From Escherichia phage UFV-AREG1: a DNA stretch of 64,000 nucleotides. Both the position numbers and the translations under genes were made by a program. Where the stretch lies: the sequence record KX009778, one strand, 5' to 3'. Positions 1 through 11,351 of this stretch are shown piece after piece; within the stretch, counting starts at the first letter, position 1; each line of letters begins with the position of its first letter. A model generated the notes under the pieces. That model had not been told where the DNA came from and did not search any database. It saw only the letters and a program-made list of their open reading frames with translations.

Positions 1-588
1 GATAATACTATCTTTTTTAACATCAAGCACTTGGTTTTGTGAATTTAATTCACGTATTAGTGCTTTATTAAGCTTATCCATTTCAGCTAATGTTCCTACC
101 TCAAGCAGGTCTTCCACAAGCTTTCTTCGCGCAGGGGTCGACAAACCCATGAAAGGGGTATACCCTGCTGTACCAAGGACAACAATCTGCTTGAAACTGG
201 CATATGACATTCCGATAAGCTGTTCAAATTCTGCTTGGAAATCTTTACTGCTGGCAGATTCATTAAGACGTGTACCGTTAACGGTGATTTCAAAAACGTT
301 CGGTTTTTGTCCTCTTTTGATATAGTACTTTTTCTCATCATATTCCATCCACAGTTCAACTAAAAGTTCTTTCTTATTTGTGCTGTTTATTAATTGACCT
401 TTCTTTACATCACGAAATGGCTTGCCAAAAAGCCCAAATGTGATGGCTTCTAACATAGTAGACTTACCACCGCCATTTCGTCCAGTAATAAGAGTTTTTT
501 GAACCTTATCTAGTTGAATGTCAATAGGATTTCCACCTACTGACATTATATTTTGATACCTAACTCGGTTTAGTTTAAAATTCTTCAC
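1..588 (-). CDS. 46: Recombination endonuclease subunit gp46 (SbcC/Rad50-like ATPase), N-terminal ~196 codons; gene continues past window start
   Basis: Minus frame reads VKNFKLNRVRYQNIMSVGGNPIDIQLDKVQKTLITGRNGGGKSTMLEAI with Walker A; probable GTG start at 588 with AAGGAA SD; matches recalled T4 gp46 N-terminus. Confidence 0.85.
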   Translation of the reverse strand, partial: MKNFKLNRVRYQNIMSVGGNPIDIQLDKVQKTLITGRNGGGKSTMLEAITFGLFGKPFRDVKKGQLINSTNKKELLVELWMEYDEKKYYIKRGQKPNVFEITVNGTRLNESASSKDFQAEFEQLIGMSYASFKQIVVLGTAGYTPFMGLSTPARRKLVEDLLEVGTLAEMDKLNKALIRELNSQNQVLDVKKDSII

Positions 589-848
589 AAAAGATTCCTT
601 TTAATGTATCTTTTAGACCATTCTATCATATCATCATAATCTAAAAAGTATTCATCAAATTCAGCCATGCAAACAACACCTTGTGCTGCTTTTGATGTGA
701 TATAAATTATTCCAACATATCTAGAATCTTCTTCGGTGTAATCAATATTTGCTATGAATTCATCATTAATGTCAAATGTCGAAAACTTCACAGTATGCAT
801 CCTTAATACAAGATACAGCCATATCTTGTAATGATTTAGGTGTGTCAT
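585..848 (-). CDS. hypothetical small protein (87 aa)
   Basis: ORF track; stop overlaps gene 46 start; start uncertain because it overlaps next ORF. Confidence 0.45.
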   Translation of the reverse strand: MTHLNHYKIWLYLVLRMHTVKFSTFDINDEFIANIDYTEEDSRYVGIIYITSKAAQGVVCMAEFDEYFLDYDDMIEWSKRYIKRNLL

Positions 849-1035: not shown

Positions 1036-2051
1036 TGTGTTGCCTCTACATATAGCTGGTTTGCATATTGAATAAGTGCTTCACGGTCAGAATCAGTGAT
1101 GTCTGGAATTGCATTAATGTATTCTTCCATCAACGTCTGAAGAGATTGAACTTCAACTTCTTCACTGTCATCTGACTCGACAGAGTTATCAATTTTTGAC
1201 ACAACTCGTAATGAATGCACAACTTTTTCTAGTTCAGATTCGAACTTCGTTAGATTTTTGTCTACTTCAGTTACTATAACACGTACTGATAGATTTGTAA
1301 AATCTTTATAGTCAATTTTTCCTTTAAATGGATAATGAATTCTACGATGCCAGGTAGTATTGTTTGGAATAAATTCCATTCGTTCTGTTTCTGTATCAAA
1401 CATCCAGAACCCACGAGGGTCATTCTCGTCACCTGCAGTTAGTGTCCATGGTGTCCCAATATATCTGACGTTAGCAGCCTCAGAGATAGTATGGAAGTGA
1501 CCAGACCACACTTCTTTATAAGTCTTAAGGAAATCAGGTTCAAGACCGTGAGATTTCATTCCTTTATAAAAATAAAATCCGTTCAGTTCCCAGTGACCAA
1601 CACAAAAAGAAGCAGATGAAGTTTTGATATGCTCAAGAATTTCACCAGTATTTTCTTCACACATCCAAGGAATTAAATCAATCAAACATCCGTCAAAATC
1701 TACTGTAGTAGGCTTATCATACACTTTAACATTAGGATATTTAGCCAAAAGCTCAGTAGAGGCATTTGGAGTTAAAGTATTTTTAAAGTGCATATCATGG
1801 TTTCCTACAACAGTATGTAGGGTAATACCAGCATCATCAAGCATTTGAACTATTTCACGAGCAAACTCCATAGTTTTATGCGTGATTGCTTTTCGCACAT
1901 CAAAAATATCGCCGTATTGAATCCAGGTAGTAATTCCATTTTTCTTAGAATATTCTATTGCTTGTTTAATTCCATCCAACTGAATAGATTGAACCCACTC
2001 ATCATCGGCTTTAACGCCTAAATGCCAATCACCTAAATTTAAAATTTTCAT
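1032..2051 (-). CDS. 47: Recombination endonuclease subunit gp47 (Mre11-like metallophosphoesterase)
   Basis: 339-aa ORF with phosphoesterase motifs GDWH, GDIFD, GNHD, GHWE, GHFH; matches recalled T4 gp47. Confidence 0.9.
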   Translation of the reverse strand: MKILNLGDWHLGVKADDEWVQSIQLDGIKQAIEYSKKNGITTWIQYGDIFDVRKAITHKTMEFAREIVQMLDDAGITLHTVVGNHDMHFKNTLTPNASTELLAKYPNVKVYDKPTTVDFDGCLIDLIPWMCEENTGEILEHIKTSSASFCVGHWELNGFYFYKGMKSHGLEPDFLKTYKEVWSGHFHTISEAANVRYIGTPWTLTAGDENDPRGFWMFDTETERMEFIPNNTTWHRRIHYPFKGKIDYKDFTNLSVRVIVTEVDKNLTKFESELEKVVHSLRVVSKIDNSVESDDSEEVEVQSLQTLMEEYINAIPDITDSDREALIQYANQLYVEATQ

Positions 2052-2211
2052 ATATCAAGAACCGTCATTGAAATGCAAAATAAAATTATTGAAATAAACC
2101 CATCTGGTGTGCTAAAGAACCCAATCCAACATGCTCTAGTGAATAGATAAAATGCAAGAAAAAGTATCACATATCCAAGAAATATCATTATATCAAACTC
2201 CGTATAAAGCT

Positions 2212-2229
2212 AAAGGGCCGAAGCCCTTT
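2212..2229 (-). terminator. Hairpin terminator after a-gt
   Basis: AAGGGC-cgaa-GCCCTT stem-loop overlapping stop codon, T-rich flank. Confidence 0.55.
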
Positions 2230-3430
2230 ATTTTGTAATAATGTCAAACTGTTCTTTAAAGCAGAAGCTTGAATCTTGATGCTGATACAAAAATTCATAT
2301 GCTTTTTCTCGCTCATGATCATAAAGAGCTCGGTCAGATGACAGTTCTTTAATACGTTCAAATGTTGATTCCATATCATTTTCATCAAACCAAATGATAC
2401 CGCTATCATGCGAGGTCAAAGGAGTATTATCAACACGGAATTTTAAATTTTCGCCAGTAGATTTCCAAAATACTGGAATTGTTCCACACGCGCCAAGCTC
2501 GAGATGAGTATATTCTAAAGAACGTTGTAGATATTTTTTGTCCAACTTACTCAGCTGATAACCAAATCCGGATTTACTCATGCGTTCAAGCATTTCGCTA
2601 TTTACATAACGGTCAAGAATTTGCGTTGGCAAATTAGGAGCAATTTTAATTTGGTCTACTTGATGAAGACGATAATACTCGTATGGAATTCCTTTTTCTT
2701 TAATAGGAATGAACGCTGGAGAACGTTCCAGACCTTCCATAATAGTACTTAGTCCTGCAGGTTTAAGATGTTTTTCGTGAAAATCAAACATCTGATAAAA
2801 ACCTTTCCATGTAGTCGTACGACCAATCCAACGGTTGATATTCATGTTAATTTCAGAAACATCTTTCCAGTAGGTTGACCGAACCTTCGCAATATCCATA
2901 GGAGGCTGAAAGTTATATACTGTCGGTGCTTCTTCAATATCATCAAACAGAGAAACAGTTTCTGGATACCACTCTTTCATCAGAACTTTATTAAAATCAC
3001 CATTATCAGAATGGCTAAAAATAACATCAGCTCGACGAACAGTTTCTTCTAATCCCAAATTTCGACGCAAAGAAAGAGAAGAATGGTCATGTTGATAAAC
3101 TACAACACGAACAGAAGGTTTAATGTTATCAATAATTTTTTTATAGTTATTAATAGTGTCTTCTTCAACCGAAGTAGCAGGAACTGAATTGATAATTAGA
3201 ATATCACAATCATTTACCAGCTTAAGTGTTTTATCATATTCTTTTGCCAATAAAACCGGAATTGAAAATGATTTATAATCATGCGCGCAGTTACGAGTAA
3301 ATGATTTATCTTTAGCATAAACCAAAGTTACTTCATGACCATTTTTAATAAACCAATCACGCTGCTCAAGAGAAAATTTAGTTACACCGCAACCTTCAAG
3401 ACCTCGAGCCATAAAAATACATACTTTCAT
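2228..3430 (-). CDS. a-gt: DNA alpha-glucosyltransferase
   Basis: 400-aa ORF MKVCIFMARGLEGCGVTKFSLEQRDWFIKNGHEVTLVYAKDK; near-identical to recalled T4 alpha-gt N-terminus and same length. Confidence 0.9.
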   Translation of the reverse strand: MKVCIFMARGLEGCGVTKFSLEQRDWFIKNGHEVTLVYAKDKSFTRNCAHDYKSFSIPVLLAKEYDKTLKLVNDCDILIINSVPATSVEEDTINNYKKIIDNIKPSVRVVVYQHDHSSLSLRRNLGLEETVRRADVIFSHSDNGDFNKVLMKEWYPETVSLFDDIEEAPTVYNFQPPMDIAKVRSTYWKDVSEINMNINRWIGRTTTWKGFYQMFDFHEKHLKPAGLSTIMEGLERSPAFIPIKEKGIPYEYYRLHQVDQIKIAPNLPTQILDRYVNSEMLERMSKSGFGYQLSKLDKKYLQRSLEYTHLELGACGTIPVFWKSTGENLKFRVDNTPLTSHDSGIIWFDENDMESTFERIKELSSDRALYDHEREKAYEFLYQHQDSSFCFKEQFDIITK

Positions 3431-7652: not shown

Positions 7653-7767
7653 ATTTTACCCTTAATTAATTAACAAAGCATTGATAAGTACTAAACTATA
7701 TTGGGAATAAAATTCTGGACCAAAATGAAAAATCATATCATTTATAGTATCCATAATGCAATTCAAT

Positions 7768-8238
7768 TTAATCATGTTTCCACACCCCATCGGTATTTGA
7801 CCAAAGTCGCTGATTATCTGATCCTCGCCACAGCTTTTTAGTCGGAAGATTTTTCTCATACTTCCCATCAATAATAACATCAACATATTTAAGCATTTCT
7901 AGTTGTTTAATATCTTCAAACTTATATCCTGTCCACAACCAAATGCTTTTATTGGGATAAAGATTTTTTACTGTTTGAACCACAGAGTGAATCACGTCTC
8001 TGTTATCAGGATAAAGAGGGTCACCTCCGGTTATAGTTAATCCTTCTATATAATCATTATTCAAACATTCAATCAATTGTTCTAGTGTTTCACCAGTAAA
8101 TGGAATACCATTTCTAGCATTCCATGTTGATTTATTATAACACCCTTCGCATTTATGCAAACATCCAGTAACGAAAAGAACTGTCCTGCATCCAGGACCA
8201 TTAACAAAGCAGCACGGGTATATTCTGTCATAATTCAT
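7768..8238 (-). CDS. nrdG: Anaerobic ribonucleotide reductase activating protein (radical SAM)
   Basis: 156-aa ORF with CxxxCxxC motif GCLHKCEGC; matches recalled T4 NrdG. Confidence 0.9.
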   Translation of the reverse strand: MNYDRIYPCCFVNGPGCRTVLFVTGCLHKCEGCYNKSTWNARNGIPFTGETLEQLIECLNNDYIEGLTITGGDPLYPDNRDVIHSVVQTVKNLYPNKSIWLWTGYKFEDIKQLEMLKYVDVIIDGKYEKNLPTKKLWRGSDNQRLWSNTDGVWKHD

Positions 8239-9067
8239 TTATATATTTCCAATTATAGCCTTCAACACTTTTACGTTCGCCATTTAAACATTTTAAAATA
8301 TTTCCTTTGCTAGAAATATTAAAATATTTTGCTGCGTCTGGTATATAATTAAATGTTTTTAAAAGAACACCATCTTTATATGCGCCAAATAAATTAAGAG
8401 TATATTTTTCTCGAAGACGCTGATGTTTCCTTTTCATAACCTCAGGATTTGCATACGCCAACTTCAATGAATTTCTGTGTTTTTCTTTTACTTCAGGTTT
8501 TTGCATTGCTAACTTAGTTAGCCTGGAAATTTTATTTCTAACTTCGTCAGTTTTCATTGCATTTGACAAATTTAATAAAGTTTTATTTCTAACTTCAGGT
8601 TTTTGCATTGCTAACTTAGTTAGTTCTCTATGTCTTTTTCTAAAATCGTCATCCTTCCATATATTTTTCGATAATTTTGACATAGAGCGGTGAAATAATT
8701 CCTTTTCACTGGAATACAATTTAAAAATTTCATCCAATTCATCCGCATTAAATCTATCGGTATTCGAGTTTATCATTCTATGAAAGGCATAACACATTTT
8801 ACTATTGCTTGTTTTAGCTAAATAGTAATGAGCTAACGCATGGTCATAATATGACAAATTAACAATATTCCATTTATCTGTTTTATATTCAGGAAATATA
8901 GATTTGGGAAGCACGTGATGTGCTTCCGTTTTTCCTTTTATTTTAGGATTATTATAATTTTTTGTTATCAAATCAACATATGACAATAGTAAATCATTAT
9001 TTTCTTCAAATATTAAAGCTAATTTATCATTCACAAAATCGCAAGGATAAAATCTATCATAATTCAT
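8228..9067 (-). CDS. HNH-family homing endonuclease (Mob-like), freestanding between nrdD and nrdG
   Basis: 279-aa ORF with HNH-like motif EAHHVLPKS...NIVNL...HALAH; three 17-aa tandem repeats; C-terminal GERKSVEGYNWKY motif; first 13 codons duplicate the nrdG N-terminus. Confidence 0.75.
   Translation of the reverse strand: MNYDRFYPCDFVNDKLALIFEENNDLLLSYVDLITKNYNNPKIKGKTEAHHVLPKSIFPEYKTDKWNIVNLSYYDHALAHYYLAKTSNSKMCYAFHRMINSNTDRFNADELDEIFKLYSSEKELFHRSMSKLSKNIWKDDDFRKRHRELTKLAMQKPEVRNKTLLNLSNAMKTDEVRNKISRLTKLAMQKPEVKEKHRNSLKLAYANPEVMKRKHQRLREKYTLNLFGAYKDGVLLKTFNYIPDAAKYFNISSKGNILKCLNGERKSVEGYNWKYINEL
8239..9063 (-). mobile_element. Homing-endonuclease gene insertion at the nrdD/nrdG junction
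   Basis: About 40 bp at 9031..9070 is a diverged copy of the nrdG start region 8201..8240 (both contain TCATAATTCATT); the HEG sits exactly between nrdD stop and nrdG start. Confidence 0.6.
8478..8630 (-). repeat. Three tandem ~51-bp coding repeats inside the HNH endonuclease gene
   Basis: Repeated DNA blocks containing cttcaggtttttgcattgctaacttagttag; encode repeated LTKLAMQKPEV peptide motif. Confidence 0.7.
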
Positions 9068-10881
9068 TGGTGTTTAACCCTATGCATGATTTCTTTATTT
9101 TTACCGAGATTAAATCCGCGTTCATTCGGATTTCCCAAATAACCACATGTTCTTCTTATTGTGTTCATCTTTTTAGGATCAGTTTCTCCACAGATAGAAC
9201 AAACAAATCCGTTTTCAGTAGGAGTCATTTCATGGGTACTTCCGCATGTAAAACACTTATCTACTGGCATATTAACACCAAAATAATCTAAATACTGTGC
9301 AGCATAATCCCACACGGCCTCAAGACCTTTTAAGTTATTTTTCATATCTGGAAGTTCAACATAAGAAATGTGACCGCCGGTCGCAATGAAATGATATGGC
9401 GCTTCACGAGAAATCTTTTCAAACGGAGTAATATTTTCTTCTACTGAAACATGGAAACTGTTAGTGTACCAGCCTTTATCGGTAACATCTTTTACACTTC
9501 CATATTTTTCTGTATCAAGTTTACAGAAGCGATAACAAAGGTTTTCAGCAGGAGTCGAATATAAACTAAAAGCAAATCCAGTTCTTTCAGTCCACTGTTT
9601 AAGATGAGCATTCATTTTAGTTAAAATTTCTTGTCCAATATCACGACCGACAAGAATATTCAATTCGTGAATACCAATGTATCCTAGGGACACTGAACTT
9701 CTACCGTTTTTAAATAACTCAATTATATCGTCATCAGGTTTAAGACGAACCCCGAATGCACCTTCTTGGTAAAGAATAGGAGCAACAGTTGCTTTAACTC
9801 CTTTTAAGGAACTAATTCTACACATCAAAGCTTCAAAACATAAATCCATTCGTTCATTGAACAATTCGATAAATTTCTGTTCATTGAACTGTGTTCCAAT
9901 ATAAGAATCTAATGCGATACGAGGAAGATTCAGTGTTACAACACCAAGATTATTACGTCCATCAAGAATTTCATTACCAGTCGAATCTTTCCATACGCTC
10001 AAGAAACTACGGCAACCCATTGGAGAAACCGGAACTGAAGAACCAGTAATAGCTTTATTATTCTTAACCGAAATAATGTCAGGATACATTCTTTTGCTTG
10101 CGCACTCTAGAGCAAGCTGTTTAATATCATAGTTCGGATCGTTTTTATAAAGATTAACACCTTCTTCAACAAACATAACAAGCTTAGGAAAAATAGGAGT
10201 TATCCCATCACGACCAAGACCTTTAATACGATTTTTCAGAATTGCTTTCTGAATCATTCGTTCAGTCCAGTCAGTTCCCGTACCAAATGTAATTGTTACA
10301 AAAGGCGTTTGCCCGTTTGAACTAAAAAGAGTATTTACTTCATATTCATAAGCTTGGAATGCATCGTATACATCTTTTTCTGTTTTAGATTGAGCATAAT
10401 TCAACGCATCAGCGATTTGCCATTTTTCTGCATCCTCAATATGTTTTGCATAGGTGCGTTTAACATAAGGAGAAAGTACTTTATCTACATTAGCAAAAGT
10501 CGTTCCGCCGTATTGATGGGAAGCAACCTGTGCAGTAATTTGTGCCATAATTGCGGTAGCAACTCCAATTGATTTAGGAGTTTCAATCTGTGCATTACCT
10601 AGCTTAAATCCGTTTTCAAGCATTCCTTTTAAATCTACTAAACAGCAATTAGTAAATGGAAGAGCAGGGGAATAATCAATATCGTGGAAATGGATAATTC
10701 CGCTTTCATGCGCTTTCATAATAAAAGACGGGACCATATTTTTGGCAATGTGTTTAGACACAATACCAGCCATAAGGTCCCGTTGAGTTGGAAAAACACG
10801 AGAATCTTTATTAGCATTCTCGTTTAAAAGGTCTTTATTAGTTTTATGAATCAATCCTTCAATTTCTTTTTCAATTGTCAT
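9064..10881 (-). CDS. nrdD: Anaerobic ribonucleoside-triphosphate reductase NrdD, uninterrupted
   Basis: 605-aa continuous ORF ending with glycyl-radical motif RRTCGYLG and C-terminal Cys cluster; no intron. Confidence 0.92.
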   Translation of the reverse strand: MTIEKEIEGLIHKTNKDLLNENANKDSRVFPTQRDLMAGIVSKHIAKNMVPSFIMKAHESGIIHFHDIDYSPALPFTNCCLVDLKGMLENGFKLGNAQIETPKSIGVATAIMAQITAQVASHQYGGTTFANVDKVLSPYVKRTYAKHIEDAEKWQIADALNYAQSKTEKDVYDAFQAYEYEVNTLFSSNGQTPFVTITFGTGTDWTERMIQKAILKNRIKGLGRDGITPIFPKLVMFVEEGVNLYKNDPNYDIKQLALECASKRMYPDIISVKNNKAITGSSVPVSPMGCRSFLSVWKDSTGNEILDGRNNLGVVTLNLPRIALDSYIGTQFNEQKFIELFNERMDLCFEALMCRISSLKGVKATVAPILYQEGAFGVRLKPDDDIIELFKNGRSSVSLGYIGIHELNILVGRDIGQEILTKMNAHLKQWTERTGFAFSLYSTPAENLCYRFCKLDTEKYGSVKDVTDKGWYTNSFHVSVEENITPFEKISREAPYHFIATGGHISYVELPDMKNNLKGLEAVWDYAAQYLDYFGVNMPVDKCFTCGSTHEMTPTENGFVCSICGETDPKKMNTIRRTCGYLGNPNERGFNLGKNKEIMHRVKHQ

Positions 10882-11351
10882 TTTAAACTCTTTCTAAGCT
10901 GCTTCTTGAATGAAGCTATTAACTGTGTTTTTGTGTCAGATTCATTATATTCAAATCCTCTTTGAAGCATCTCGGCCATCATTTCCTCTTTTCCTAAACG
11001 AGAAAATTCCTTTGATTTATCTCCAACAAAGTTAGGGTGAATATTATTTTGGGTGTAATCGGATTTTAAATAAGTAAGTAAATTTTCTAACCATTCAAGA
11101 TAATCAACACCTTGTCCCTTTAAGCCAGAACGATTAAATTTGTGCTTCATTTGACCTTCTGCGGCATTACAGAGATTACAAAGCAATCCACGTACCTTTC
11201 CTGCTTTTGGTCCATTTAATTCATGGTCATGGTCGAGGTGATTAGCTTGAACATCAGGATTTAGTTCTCGTTGGCAAATTAAGCATTTACCGTTTTGTGC
11301 ATCATAAAATTTCTGTTTTTCTTCTTTATATAATTTGCCAGTCAATAACAT
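10878..11351 (-). CDS. 49: Endonuclease VII (Holliday junction resolvase) gp49
   Basis: 157-aa ORF with CLICQ, HLDHDHELNG, CNLC motifs; matches recalled T4 gp49. Confidence 0.9.
   Translation of the reverse strand: MLLTGKLYKEEKQKFYDAQNGKCLICQRELNPDVQANHLDHDHELNGPKAGKVRGLLCNLCNAAEGQMKHKFNRSGLKGQGVDYLEWLENLLTYLKSDYTQNNIHPNFVGDKSKEFSRLGKEEMMAEMLQRGFEYNESDTKTQLIASFKKQLRKSLK

Follow-up and report, generated by a model that had tools for sequence, protein, structure and literature searches.

An HNH homing-endonuclease gene within the 5' end of nrdG in T4-like phages

The nrdD-nrdG locus of UFV-AREG1

The window analyzed here is a stretch of 64,000 nucleotides (nt) from Escherichia phage UFV-AREG1 (KX009778), a T4-like phage (Tequatrovirus), and our subject is an open reading frame (ORF) of 279 amino acids (aa) that lies in it between nrdD and nrdG, the genes for the large subunit of the anaerobic ribonucleotide reductase and its activase (Table 1). 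Over this region, the closest genomes are those of Escherichia phage T4_ev240 (99.4% identity) and Yersinia phage PST (98%). The ORF belongs to an ordinary class, the free-standing homing-endonuclease genes of phages, and its site is known as well: nrdD/nrdG is an endonuclease hot spot of T-even phages, with the free-standing HNH gene mobC inserted at nrdG/nrdD (PMC2988022, Table 1) and with segH replacing mobC (PMC2988022, citing Sandegren et al. 2005). Both the site and the class of gene have long been known for T4, and the 279-aa gene itself is already annotated in about 30 public genomes, in PST as “mobC: homing endonuclease.” A preliminary description of this DNA had recognized here an HNH endonuclease gene of the mobile type, on which the ORFs, the catalytic motif, the PHROG matches, and the presence/absence pattern agree, but had placed it neither in the context of the mobC/segH hot spot nor in that of the existing annotations.

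The 3' end of the ORF overlaps nrdG by 11 nt. In the window, nrdD contains no intron; in PST and T4, it carries a group I intron with I-TevII next to the mobC genes, so that the 279-aa ORF is found both with and without a neighboring nrdD intron. A promoter and terminator scan of positions 7700..9500 returned 8 promoter-like sites, compared with 10.2 +/- 3.0 in shuffled sequences; there is no excess, and we make no claim of an embedded promoter.

Table 1. Features of the nrdD-nrdG region in the window
Feature	Position	Strand	Basis
Gene 49, endonuclease VII	10878..11351	minus	ORF and Pfam
nrdD, anaerobic ribonucleotide reductase large subunit, 605 aa, uninterrupted	9064..10881	minus	ORF; Pfam NRDD 1e-170
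ATGA, nrdD stop overlapping the endonuclease start; the nrdD/nrdG arrangement of empty-site phages	9064..9067	minus	
279-aa HNH homing-endonuclease ORF, start MNYDRFYPCDFVN	8228..9067	minus	ORF, PHROG, alignment
Captured native nrdG 5' end, nt 1-41, codons 1-13, MNYDRFYPCDFVN; now endonuclease start codon and leader	9027..9067	minus	
HNH core, residues 45-84, GKTEAHHVLPKS...WNIVNLSYYDHALAHYYLA	8816..8935	minus	
Helical 17-aa repeats, residues ~140-222, units like LTKLAMQKPEVRNK	8402..8650	minus	
C-terminal NUMOD1/I-HmuI-NUMOD-like putative DNA-binding module, residues ~235-272	8252..8365	minus	Sub-threshold Pfam; phrog_7140, phrog_314
Endonuclease stop TGA, read out of frame from nrdG nt 9-11; 8 nt beyond the nrdG ATG	8228..8230	minus	
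Cassette-borne replacement nrdG 5' end, nt 1-41, MNYDRIYPCCFVN	8198..8238	minus	
829-bp segment extra versus empty sites: endonuclease body plus rewritten nrdG nt 1-30	8209..9037, equally 8198..9026	minus	Pairwise alignment with DalCa
nrdG, activase, radical SAM, 156 aa, start MNYDRIYPCCFVN	7768..8238	minus	ORF; Pfam Fer4_12 1e-48

Two nrdG starts and the borders of the cassette

The first 41 nt of the endonuclease ORF and the first 41 nt of nrdG (9027..9067 versus 8198..8238) are identical at 31 positions. Elsewhere in the 64-kb window, the agreement stays below 27/41, and the maximum over five shuffled windows was 25/41. The duplicate of about 40 bp in the preliminary description is thus real, although its coordinates there (9031..9070 and 8201..8240) need a shift of about 3 nt.

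That description had proposed a comparison with relatives lacking the insertion, and such empty-site alleles turned out to be abundant. Their nrdG starts with ATGAATTATGATAGATTTTATCCTTGCGATTTTGT(G/T)AATGG (MNYDRFYPCDFVNG), as does the endonuclease ORF. The endonuclease-side copy matches the empty-site nrdG starts at 40 of 41 positions in loci L009-L012 and at 39 of 41 in phage DalCa. The start of the resident nrdG, by comparison, differs from the empty sites by eight substitutions, all within nt 12-30 (8209..8227), among them GAT to TGC at 8209..8211 (minus strand), which replaces Asp10 of NrdG with Cys. Judged by these alignments, the endonuclease 5' copy is the native nrdG start, and it is the downstream, functional nrdG that begins with a rewritten copy. 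The polarity is therefore the reverse of that first assumed, with the N-terminus of the ORF as a diverged copy of the nrdG start.

Both copies share TTTGTnAATG, so that the block of extra DNA can slide from nrdG nt 30 to nt 41. With the native copy upstream and the rewritten copy downstream, the 829-bp cassette falls within nrdG, behind its nt 30-41. It brings neither a start codon nor a ribosome-binding site nor a stop, and the next in-frame ATG of the endonuclease is codon 91, beyond the catalytic residues. Because the cassette follows nt 30-41 of the recipient gene, the nrdG start codon of the recipient, its first 13 codons, and its ATGA coupling to nrdD become the start of the endonuclease. 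The rewritten copy in the cassette restores a complete nrdG, which in turn supplies the endonuclease stop. We consider this anatomy, as reconstructed from sequence comparison, near-certain. It bears out the earlier observation that the endonuclease start overlaps the nrdD stop and occupies the translational context of nrdG in genomes without the insert; the same ATGA is present in DalCa.

The insert borders are alike in a second phage lineage. The native nrdG of Klebsiella phages starts with ATGAATTTCGACAGAATCTACCCTTCTGAC (MNFDRIYPSD; loci L020, L031, and L037). In the Klebsiella carriers Roth04 and SmallBear, the endonuclease begins with the local start ATGAATTTCGACAGAATCTACCC, exactly as in Klebsiella empty sites, and continues with the endonuclease body from codon 14, which is followed by imported nrdG nt 1-30 (MNYDRIYPCC) and, from nt 31, by local sequence again. 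The extra segment, 826 bp in the alignment of Roth04 with a Klebsiella empty site, lies inside nrdG here as well. The combination of a local leader with an imported patch indicates that the mobile unit consists of the endonuclease from codon 14 plus the rewritten nrdG nt 1-30 and that the endonuclease leader is whichever nrdG start the recipient had.

These comparisons bear directly on the scenario of the preliminary description, namely, exact insertion at the nrdD/nrdG junction with duplication of about 40 bp, after which the endonuclease-side copy drifted. The copies do differ at 10 of 41 positions, and the ATGA overlap with nrdD is real, but the upstream copy is the one that agrees with empty-site starts (40/41), the changes sitting in the downstream functional copy; Klebsiella phages, too, have their local allele in the upstream copy; and alignment with the empty site puts the extra DNA after nrdG nt 30, in both lineages within nrdG rather than at the junction. 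We regard this scenario as hardly credible.

Klebsiella-type T4-like phages also have a conserved 77-aa ORF between nrdD and nrdG that overlaps both genes (L003, 3736..3969; L037, 1859..2092; also L020 and L031). The endonuclease cassette falls behind this ORF in such phages.

Distribution and relatives of the endonuclease

Flanks matching nrdD and nrdG were found in ~835 phage records. The body of the 279-aa ORF is present in 30 records, 20 from Tequatrovirus (97-100% identity) and 10 from Klebsiella phages (85%). Other occupants of the nrdD/nrdG gap are T4-type mobC (210 aa; 32 records) and the GIY-YIG endonuclease gene segH (73 records), and the remaining several hundred flank-matching records have none of the three endonuclease genes. 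In the junctions that we read (DalCa, ESh24, and Tequatrovirus-like IMG/VR loci), nrdG begins at the ATGA that ends nrdD. The 29 IMG/VR loci collected by NrdG contained no copy of the 279-aa ORF and served as controls. A free-standing homing-endonuclease gene is expected to be present in some close relatives and missing from others at a single precise site, with the empty sites intact, and the genome comparisons fit this pattern.

Residues H50, H51, N67, H76, and H80 of the protein are invariant in an alignment of eight relatives including T4 MobC, and the segment GKTEAHHVLPKS...WNIVNLSYYDHALAH aligns with the HNH core of T4 MobC (38% identity over 60 aa, E 1e-7), a protein that clears the Pfam HNH model PF01844 (27.6 bits versus a cut-off of 21.4). 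The best PHROG match is phrog_655 (“homing endonuclease,” 7e-37), along with phrog_12434 (“HNH endonuclease,” 7e-15). The catalytic and metal-binding motif thus places the protein, on sequence grounds, in the HNH (beta-beta-alpha-metal) nuclease superfamily. The ratio of nonsynonymous to synonymous substitution rates (dN/dS) between the Escherichia-phage and Klebsiella-phage versions is 0.08, indicative of strong purifying selection, so that the ORF is no decaying pseudogene. It is intact in the four carriers read (the window, PST, Roth04, and SmallBear), as it is in P0001 and P0003, two full-length proteins from the database.

Between the HNH core and the C-terminus lies a tandem repeat of 2.7 copies with a period of 51 nt (8490..8623). 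Within it, a 32-bp direct repeat occurs without mismatch at 8490-8521 and 8592-8623, 102 nt apart. At the protein level, we count four 17-aa units (residues ~144-213), one more than in the preliminary description, whose tandem, modular repeats otherwise stand; the structure model predicts a run of helices, ~14 residues long, every 17 residues. The database variant P0002 is exactly 34 aa shorter and lacks the stretch between the copies of the 32-bp repeat, which implies that the number of 17-aa units varies in nature. The repeat region alone matched no NUMOD model in Pfam. For residues 235-272, the NUMOD models PF22083 (21.1 bits versus a cut-off of 27, E 2.4e-4) and PF07453 (17.3 versus 22.8, E 5.7e-3) remain below threshold, and the likeness of this segment to NUMOD DNA-binding modules is suggestive only. 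A sequence search against solved structures gave nothing meaningful (best E 0.31).

A hairpin with a 9-bp stem, GGAAGCACGTGATGTGCTTCC, lies over the HNH-motif codons at 8907..8927 and has a terminator-like score only on the antisense (plus) strand. It may merit a look given the internal regulatory hairpin of T4 mobE.

T4 MobC resembles the 279-aa protein in several respects: it occupies the same slot, with the ATGA overlap with the nrdD stop and the 11-nt overlap with nrdG (ATGAATTATGA), and has the same best PHROG match, the same HNH motif, and a similar C-terminal GY.WKY..EL. T4-type mobC also starts with the local nrdG nt 1-21 (MNYDRIY in T4, MNFDRIY in Klebsiella phage Wolf) and beyond this leader is 100% identical between T4 and Wolf. 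However, the identity of the two proteins, 38%, is confined to the 60-aa core, with no DNA similarity by megablast; the middle regions differ, MobC being shorter (210 aa) and lacking the 17-aa repeat array; the mobC junction follows nrdG nt ~21, as opposed to nt 30-41; and the nrdG linked to mobC in T4 keeps Asp10. The 279-aa ORF is therefore, as far as sequence comparison goes, best called a second mobC-like type, not T4 mobC itself.

The T4 locus shows further signs of exchange. NrdG of T4 (L004, 4447..4917) is only 80% identical to that of the window, compared with 99% for the nrdD tail. The first 100 nt of T4 nrdG are identical to those of Klebsiella phage Wolf (L046), and nt 42-100 also to those of SmallBear (L036, 2790..3260); T4-type mobC is 100% identical in three Klebsiella phages. 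It looks as if the mobC-nrdG block was recently exchanged between Klebsiella and Escherichia phages.

SegH, the alternative occupant of the gap, is likewise followed by the Cys10 5' allele of nrdG but belongs to an unrelated catalytic family and does not carry an nrdG start; its own ATG overlaps a rewritten nrdD tail of ~22 recoded codons. SegH activity has reportedly been shown by experiment, and the enzyme is reported to cut the DNA of its own phage in vitro, an argument against the patch as SegH immunity. We considered the start of SegH, ATGCATAGG, as a captured native nrdD tail but rejected this as a likely coincidence, given that the nrdD tail of the SegH type is of unchanged length and recoded codon by codon.

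Start capture recurs at another gene. An element before gene 46 in ~70 records, including T2 and T6, encodes a paralog of the 279-aa protein (ORF054-type; P0005, 284 aa; 36% identity over 78% of the query, E 2e-20). It starts with GTGAAGAATTTTAAACTT, the native first 18 nt of gene 46, including GTG, as in T4, and gene 46 behind it restarts as ATGAAATCATTTAAACTT, with codons 1-3 rewritten and the rest identical to T4. The rewriting includes AAT to TCA, a three-base nonsynonymous change beside the junction. P0005 differs from the 279-aa ORF in its target gene, in a 15-nt spacer, and in having its own stop before the restored gene, and is mostly annotated as “hypothetical protein.” The more distant relative P0007 shares no N-terminus with the next gene on the same strand, and start capture is thus not universal in the wider family.

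The window itself contains an empty site for the P0005-type element at 571..588 (minus strand), where gene 46 starts with GTGAAGAATTTTAAACT at 588, directly after a 46.1-like ORF (588..800). In T6 and in locus L040, those 18 nt of gene 46 begin the 284-aa HNH ORF, and gene 46 restarts with rewritten codons.

Two other T4 elements offer functional parallels. MobE is encoded by a promoterless HNH cassette between nrdA and nrdB that is translationally overlapped with the upstream gene (PMC2790892, PMC2988022), and it nicks the 5' region of the downstream nrdB in endonuclease-free phages (PMC2790892). Like the 279-aa ORF, it is free-standing and of the HNH type but belongs to a different HNH subfamily; we use it as a functional model for target prediction. 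The MobA/gene 60 bypass cassette is an HNH cassette within a coding sequence; it adds sequence by which the host gene remains functional and which is thought to shield the carrier (bioRxiv 10.1101/2022.08.31.505936). In that case, the gene falls into two parts and ribosomal bypassing rescues it, whereas in nrdG, a duplicated, rewritten 5' end restores the gene.

Target and immunity

Residue 10 of NrdG is Asp in 117 of 119 cluster representatives (phage and bacterial, down to ~51% identity); the two exceptions are Cys, both with the exact rewritten N-terminus. A patch with eight changes in 19 nt, one of them a three-base change at a near-invariant Asp, does not appear neutral in these alignments. 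The rewritten allele was found in 79 records with a 60-nt probe. Among the 60 listed, it adjoins the 279-aa ORF, segH, T4-type mobC, or a segH remnant (in vB_vPM_PD112), except in ESh24 and ERS-1; a junction probe identified ESh24, U5, and ERS-1 as endonuclease-free carriers of the patch. Escherichia phage 215Ecol030PP (L045, 600..1450) is a mosaic that combines a SegH-type recoded nrdD tail with T4-type mobC and an nrdG that is T4-type except for nt ~18-51, which are of the Cys10 type and form a 34-42-nt patch centered on the insertion point of the 279-aa ORF.

Two of the loci with this nrdG start call for separate comment. In PD112 (NC_054928/MH837626, ~113755..113940), ~19% of segH is left, in two short pieces, beside a Cys10-type nrdG start, apparently a decaying endonuclease gene at the same site. 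In RB10 (L034; 1430..1900 and 1897..2631), segH is labeled segD, an annotation problem of the RB series, and nrdG is annotated as a truncated protein of 130 aa, yet a full-length Cys10-type ORF starting with ATGAATTATGACAG is present.

The patch could owe its sequence to something other than cleavage, either because rewriting lowers the direct-repeat homology and so guards against deletion or because it is a neutral polymorphism of the donor that hitchhikes with the cassette. Direct repeats flanking an insert do invite deletion: the three endonuclease-free Cys10 phages look like deletions, and a natural 34-aa deletion has occurred between the internal 32-bp repeats. Synonymous changes would suffice for such a role, however, whereas here, a three-base nonsynonymous change hits a residue conserved in 117/119 proteins, a change of the same kind marks the gene-46 paralog (AAT to TCA), and the 34-42-nt patch moved alone into a T4-type background. 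An origin unconnected with cleavage thus seems quite improbable.

The reading that we favor, with a probability of roughly 0.6, is that the 279-aa ORF encodes a functional free-standing HNH homing endonuclease of the T4 mobC kind, carried as a minimal in-frame cassette in the nrdG 5' end, with a target and an immunity that the sequences suggest. By analogy with MobE, the enzyme would recognize nrdG nt ~13-45, the native 5' region, in phages lacking the endonuclease gene and would nick or cut there. Repair from a co-infecting carrier would then copy in the cassette with little resection, so that nt 1-30 of the recipient would be kept as the leader. The carrier would be immune as the right half of the site is missing from its upstream copy and its downstream copy is rewritten at nt 12-30, including Asp10Cys. 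To translate NrdG, ribosomes would have to terminate at the endonuclease stop, which lies 8 nt beyond the nrdG ATG, and re-initiate there. The endonuclease-free Cys10 phages (n = 3) might be deletions between the 41-bp repeats or resistant alleles, and Cys10 next to segH or T4 mobC could reflect competition for the site. Hints of co-conversion come from the imported nrdG nt 1-30, which moves with the gene into a Klebsiella-phage background, and from the existence of mosaic genomes.

A perfect inverted repeat, GTCCTG-GATG-CAGGAC, occupies 8183..8198 (minus strand; nrdG nt 41-56), where it encodes GPGCR of NrdG and abuts the insertion point on its 3' side. Other nrdG alleles keep a similar, imperfect palindrome. 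The repeat may be a candidate part of the nuclease target.

Several observations weigh against a functional enzyme with this target. The roles in cleavage and inheritance are read from comparison of sequences; no Pfam HNH model matches the 279-aa ORF, even with the HNH core and repeats submitted alone at E up to 10; fold searches gave only a weak HNH match; and mobC is listed in a 2010 review with activity “ND” and target “unknown” (PMC2988022). Only a few carriers were inspected base by base, and the association of endonuclease type with nrdG codon 10 is sampled rather than exhaustive. Finally, the Cys10 patch also flanks segH (T6, RB3, RB10, and SYGD1) and some T4-type mobC genes and could therefore confer protection from another nuclease. 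Which sequence the enzyme targets and whether the patch gives immunity are the least certain points, mainly because the patch also accompanies segH.

The “ND” entry would also suit a defunct passenger that does not cut but is spread by co-conversion with nearby active elements, such as the nrdD intron endonuclease or SegH, in the way that MobE moves I-TevIII. Trans-mobilization of this kind is documented in T4 (PMC2790892), and PST has the nrdD intron beside the 279-aa ORF. The window, however, has the ORF without the nrdD intron, and the intact ORF in the carriers read, its dN/dS of 0.08, and its conserved catalytic residues are not those of a passenger, which we consider very unlikely.

The association with segH raises the alternative that the rewritten nrdG start is immunity to, or the repair scar of, another nuclease, SegH above all, and that the 279-aa enzyme cuts elsewhere, perhaps deeper in nrdG or within nrdD. 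Many Tequatrovirus records have exactly this 60-nt Cys10 allele beside segH, the nrdD tail is rewritten in the SegH cassette too, and the mosaics show that pieces of three cassettes recombine. Against this, the Klebsiella phages, in which no segH was found, combine the 279-aa ORF with a Cys10 encoded by different synonymous codons; Klebsiella carriers of T4-type mobC keep Asp10; the patch abuts the 279-aa ORF's own insertion point; and SegH is reported to cut DNA that carries segH as well. We consider another nuclease an unlikely source of the patch.

We propose more tentatively, at somewhat less than even odds, that the phrog_655-like HNH subfamily, comprising the 279-aa ORF, T4 MobC, and the gene-46 element of T2 and T6, spreads as start-less, stop-less in-frame cassettes that take over the start and translational coupling of the target gene and bring along a rewritten 5' end as immunity, with NrdG Asp10Cys then circulating on its own among carriers of SegH and T4 MobC. 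Literature searches retrieved no description of the start duplication or of the rewritten-start anatomy, which is weak evidence of novelty given that Sandegren et al. 2005 (NAR 33:6203) was outside their reach.

The main value of this anatomy, which is otherwise of modest interest, is a sharp target-site prediction for a family of enzymes without known targets: MobC-type enzymes have been on the T4 map for decades with activity and target undetermined (PMC2988022). We predict that the enzyme acts on the first ~45 bp of native nrdG and that the natural Asp10Cys patch is the resistant allele, and natural alleles of both kinds exist (T2 and DalCa versus ESh24 and U5). For annotation, the cassette explains endonucleases that “begin like NrdG” or “like gp46” as well as nrdG genes at times miscalled as truncated. 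More generally, a selfish gene can enter a coding region with neither intron nor intein, by duplicating and rewriting the 5' end of the gene, and three unrelated endonucleases trade flanks at one hot spot. If the proposed spread of the subfamily is correct, the circulating Asp10Cys patch would record a three-way contest for a single site.

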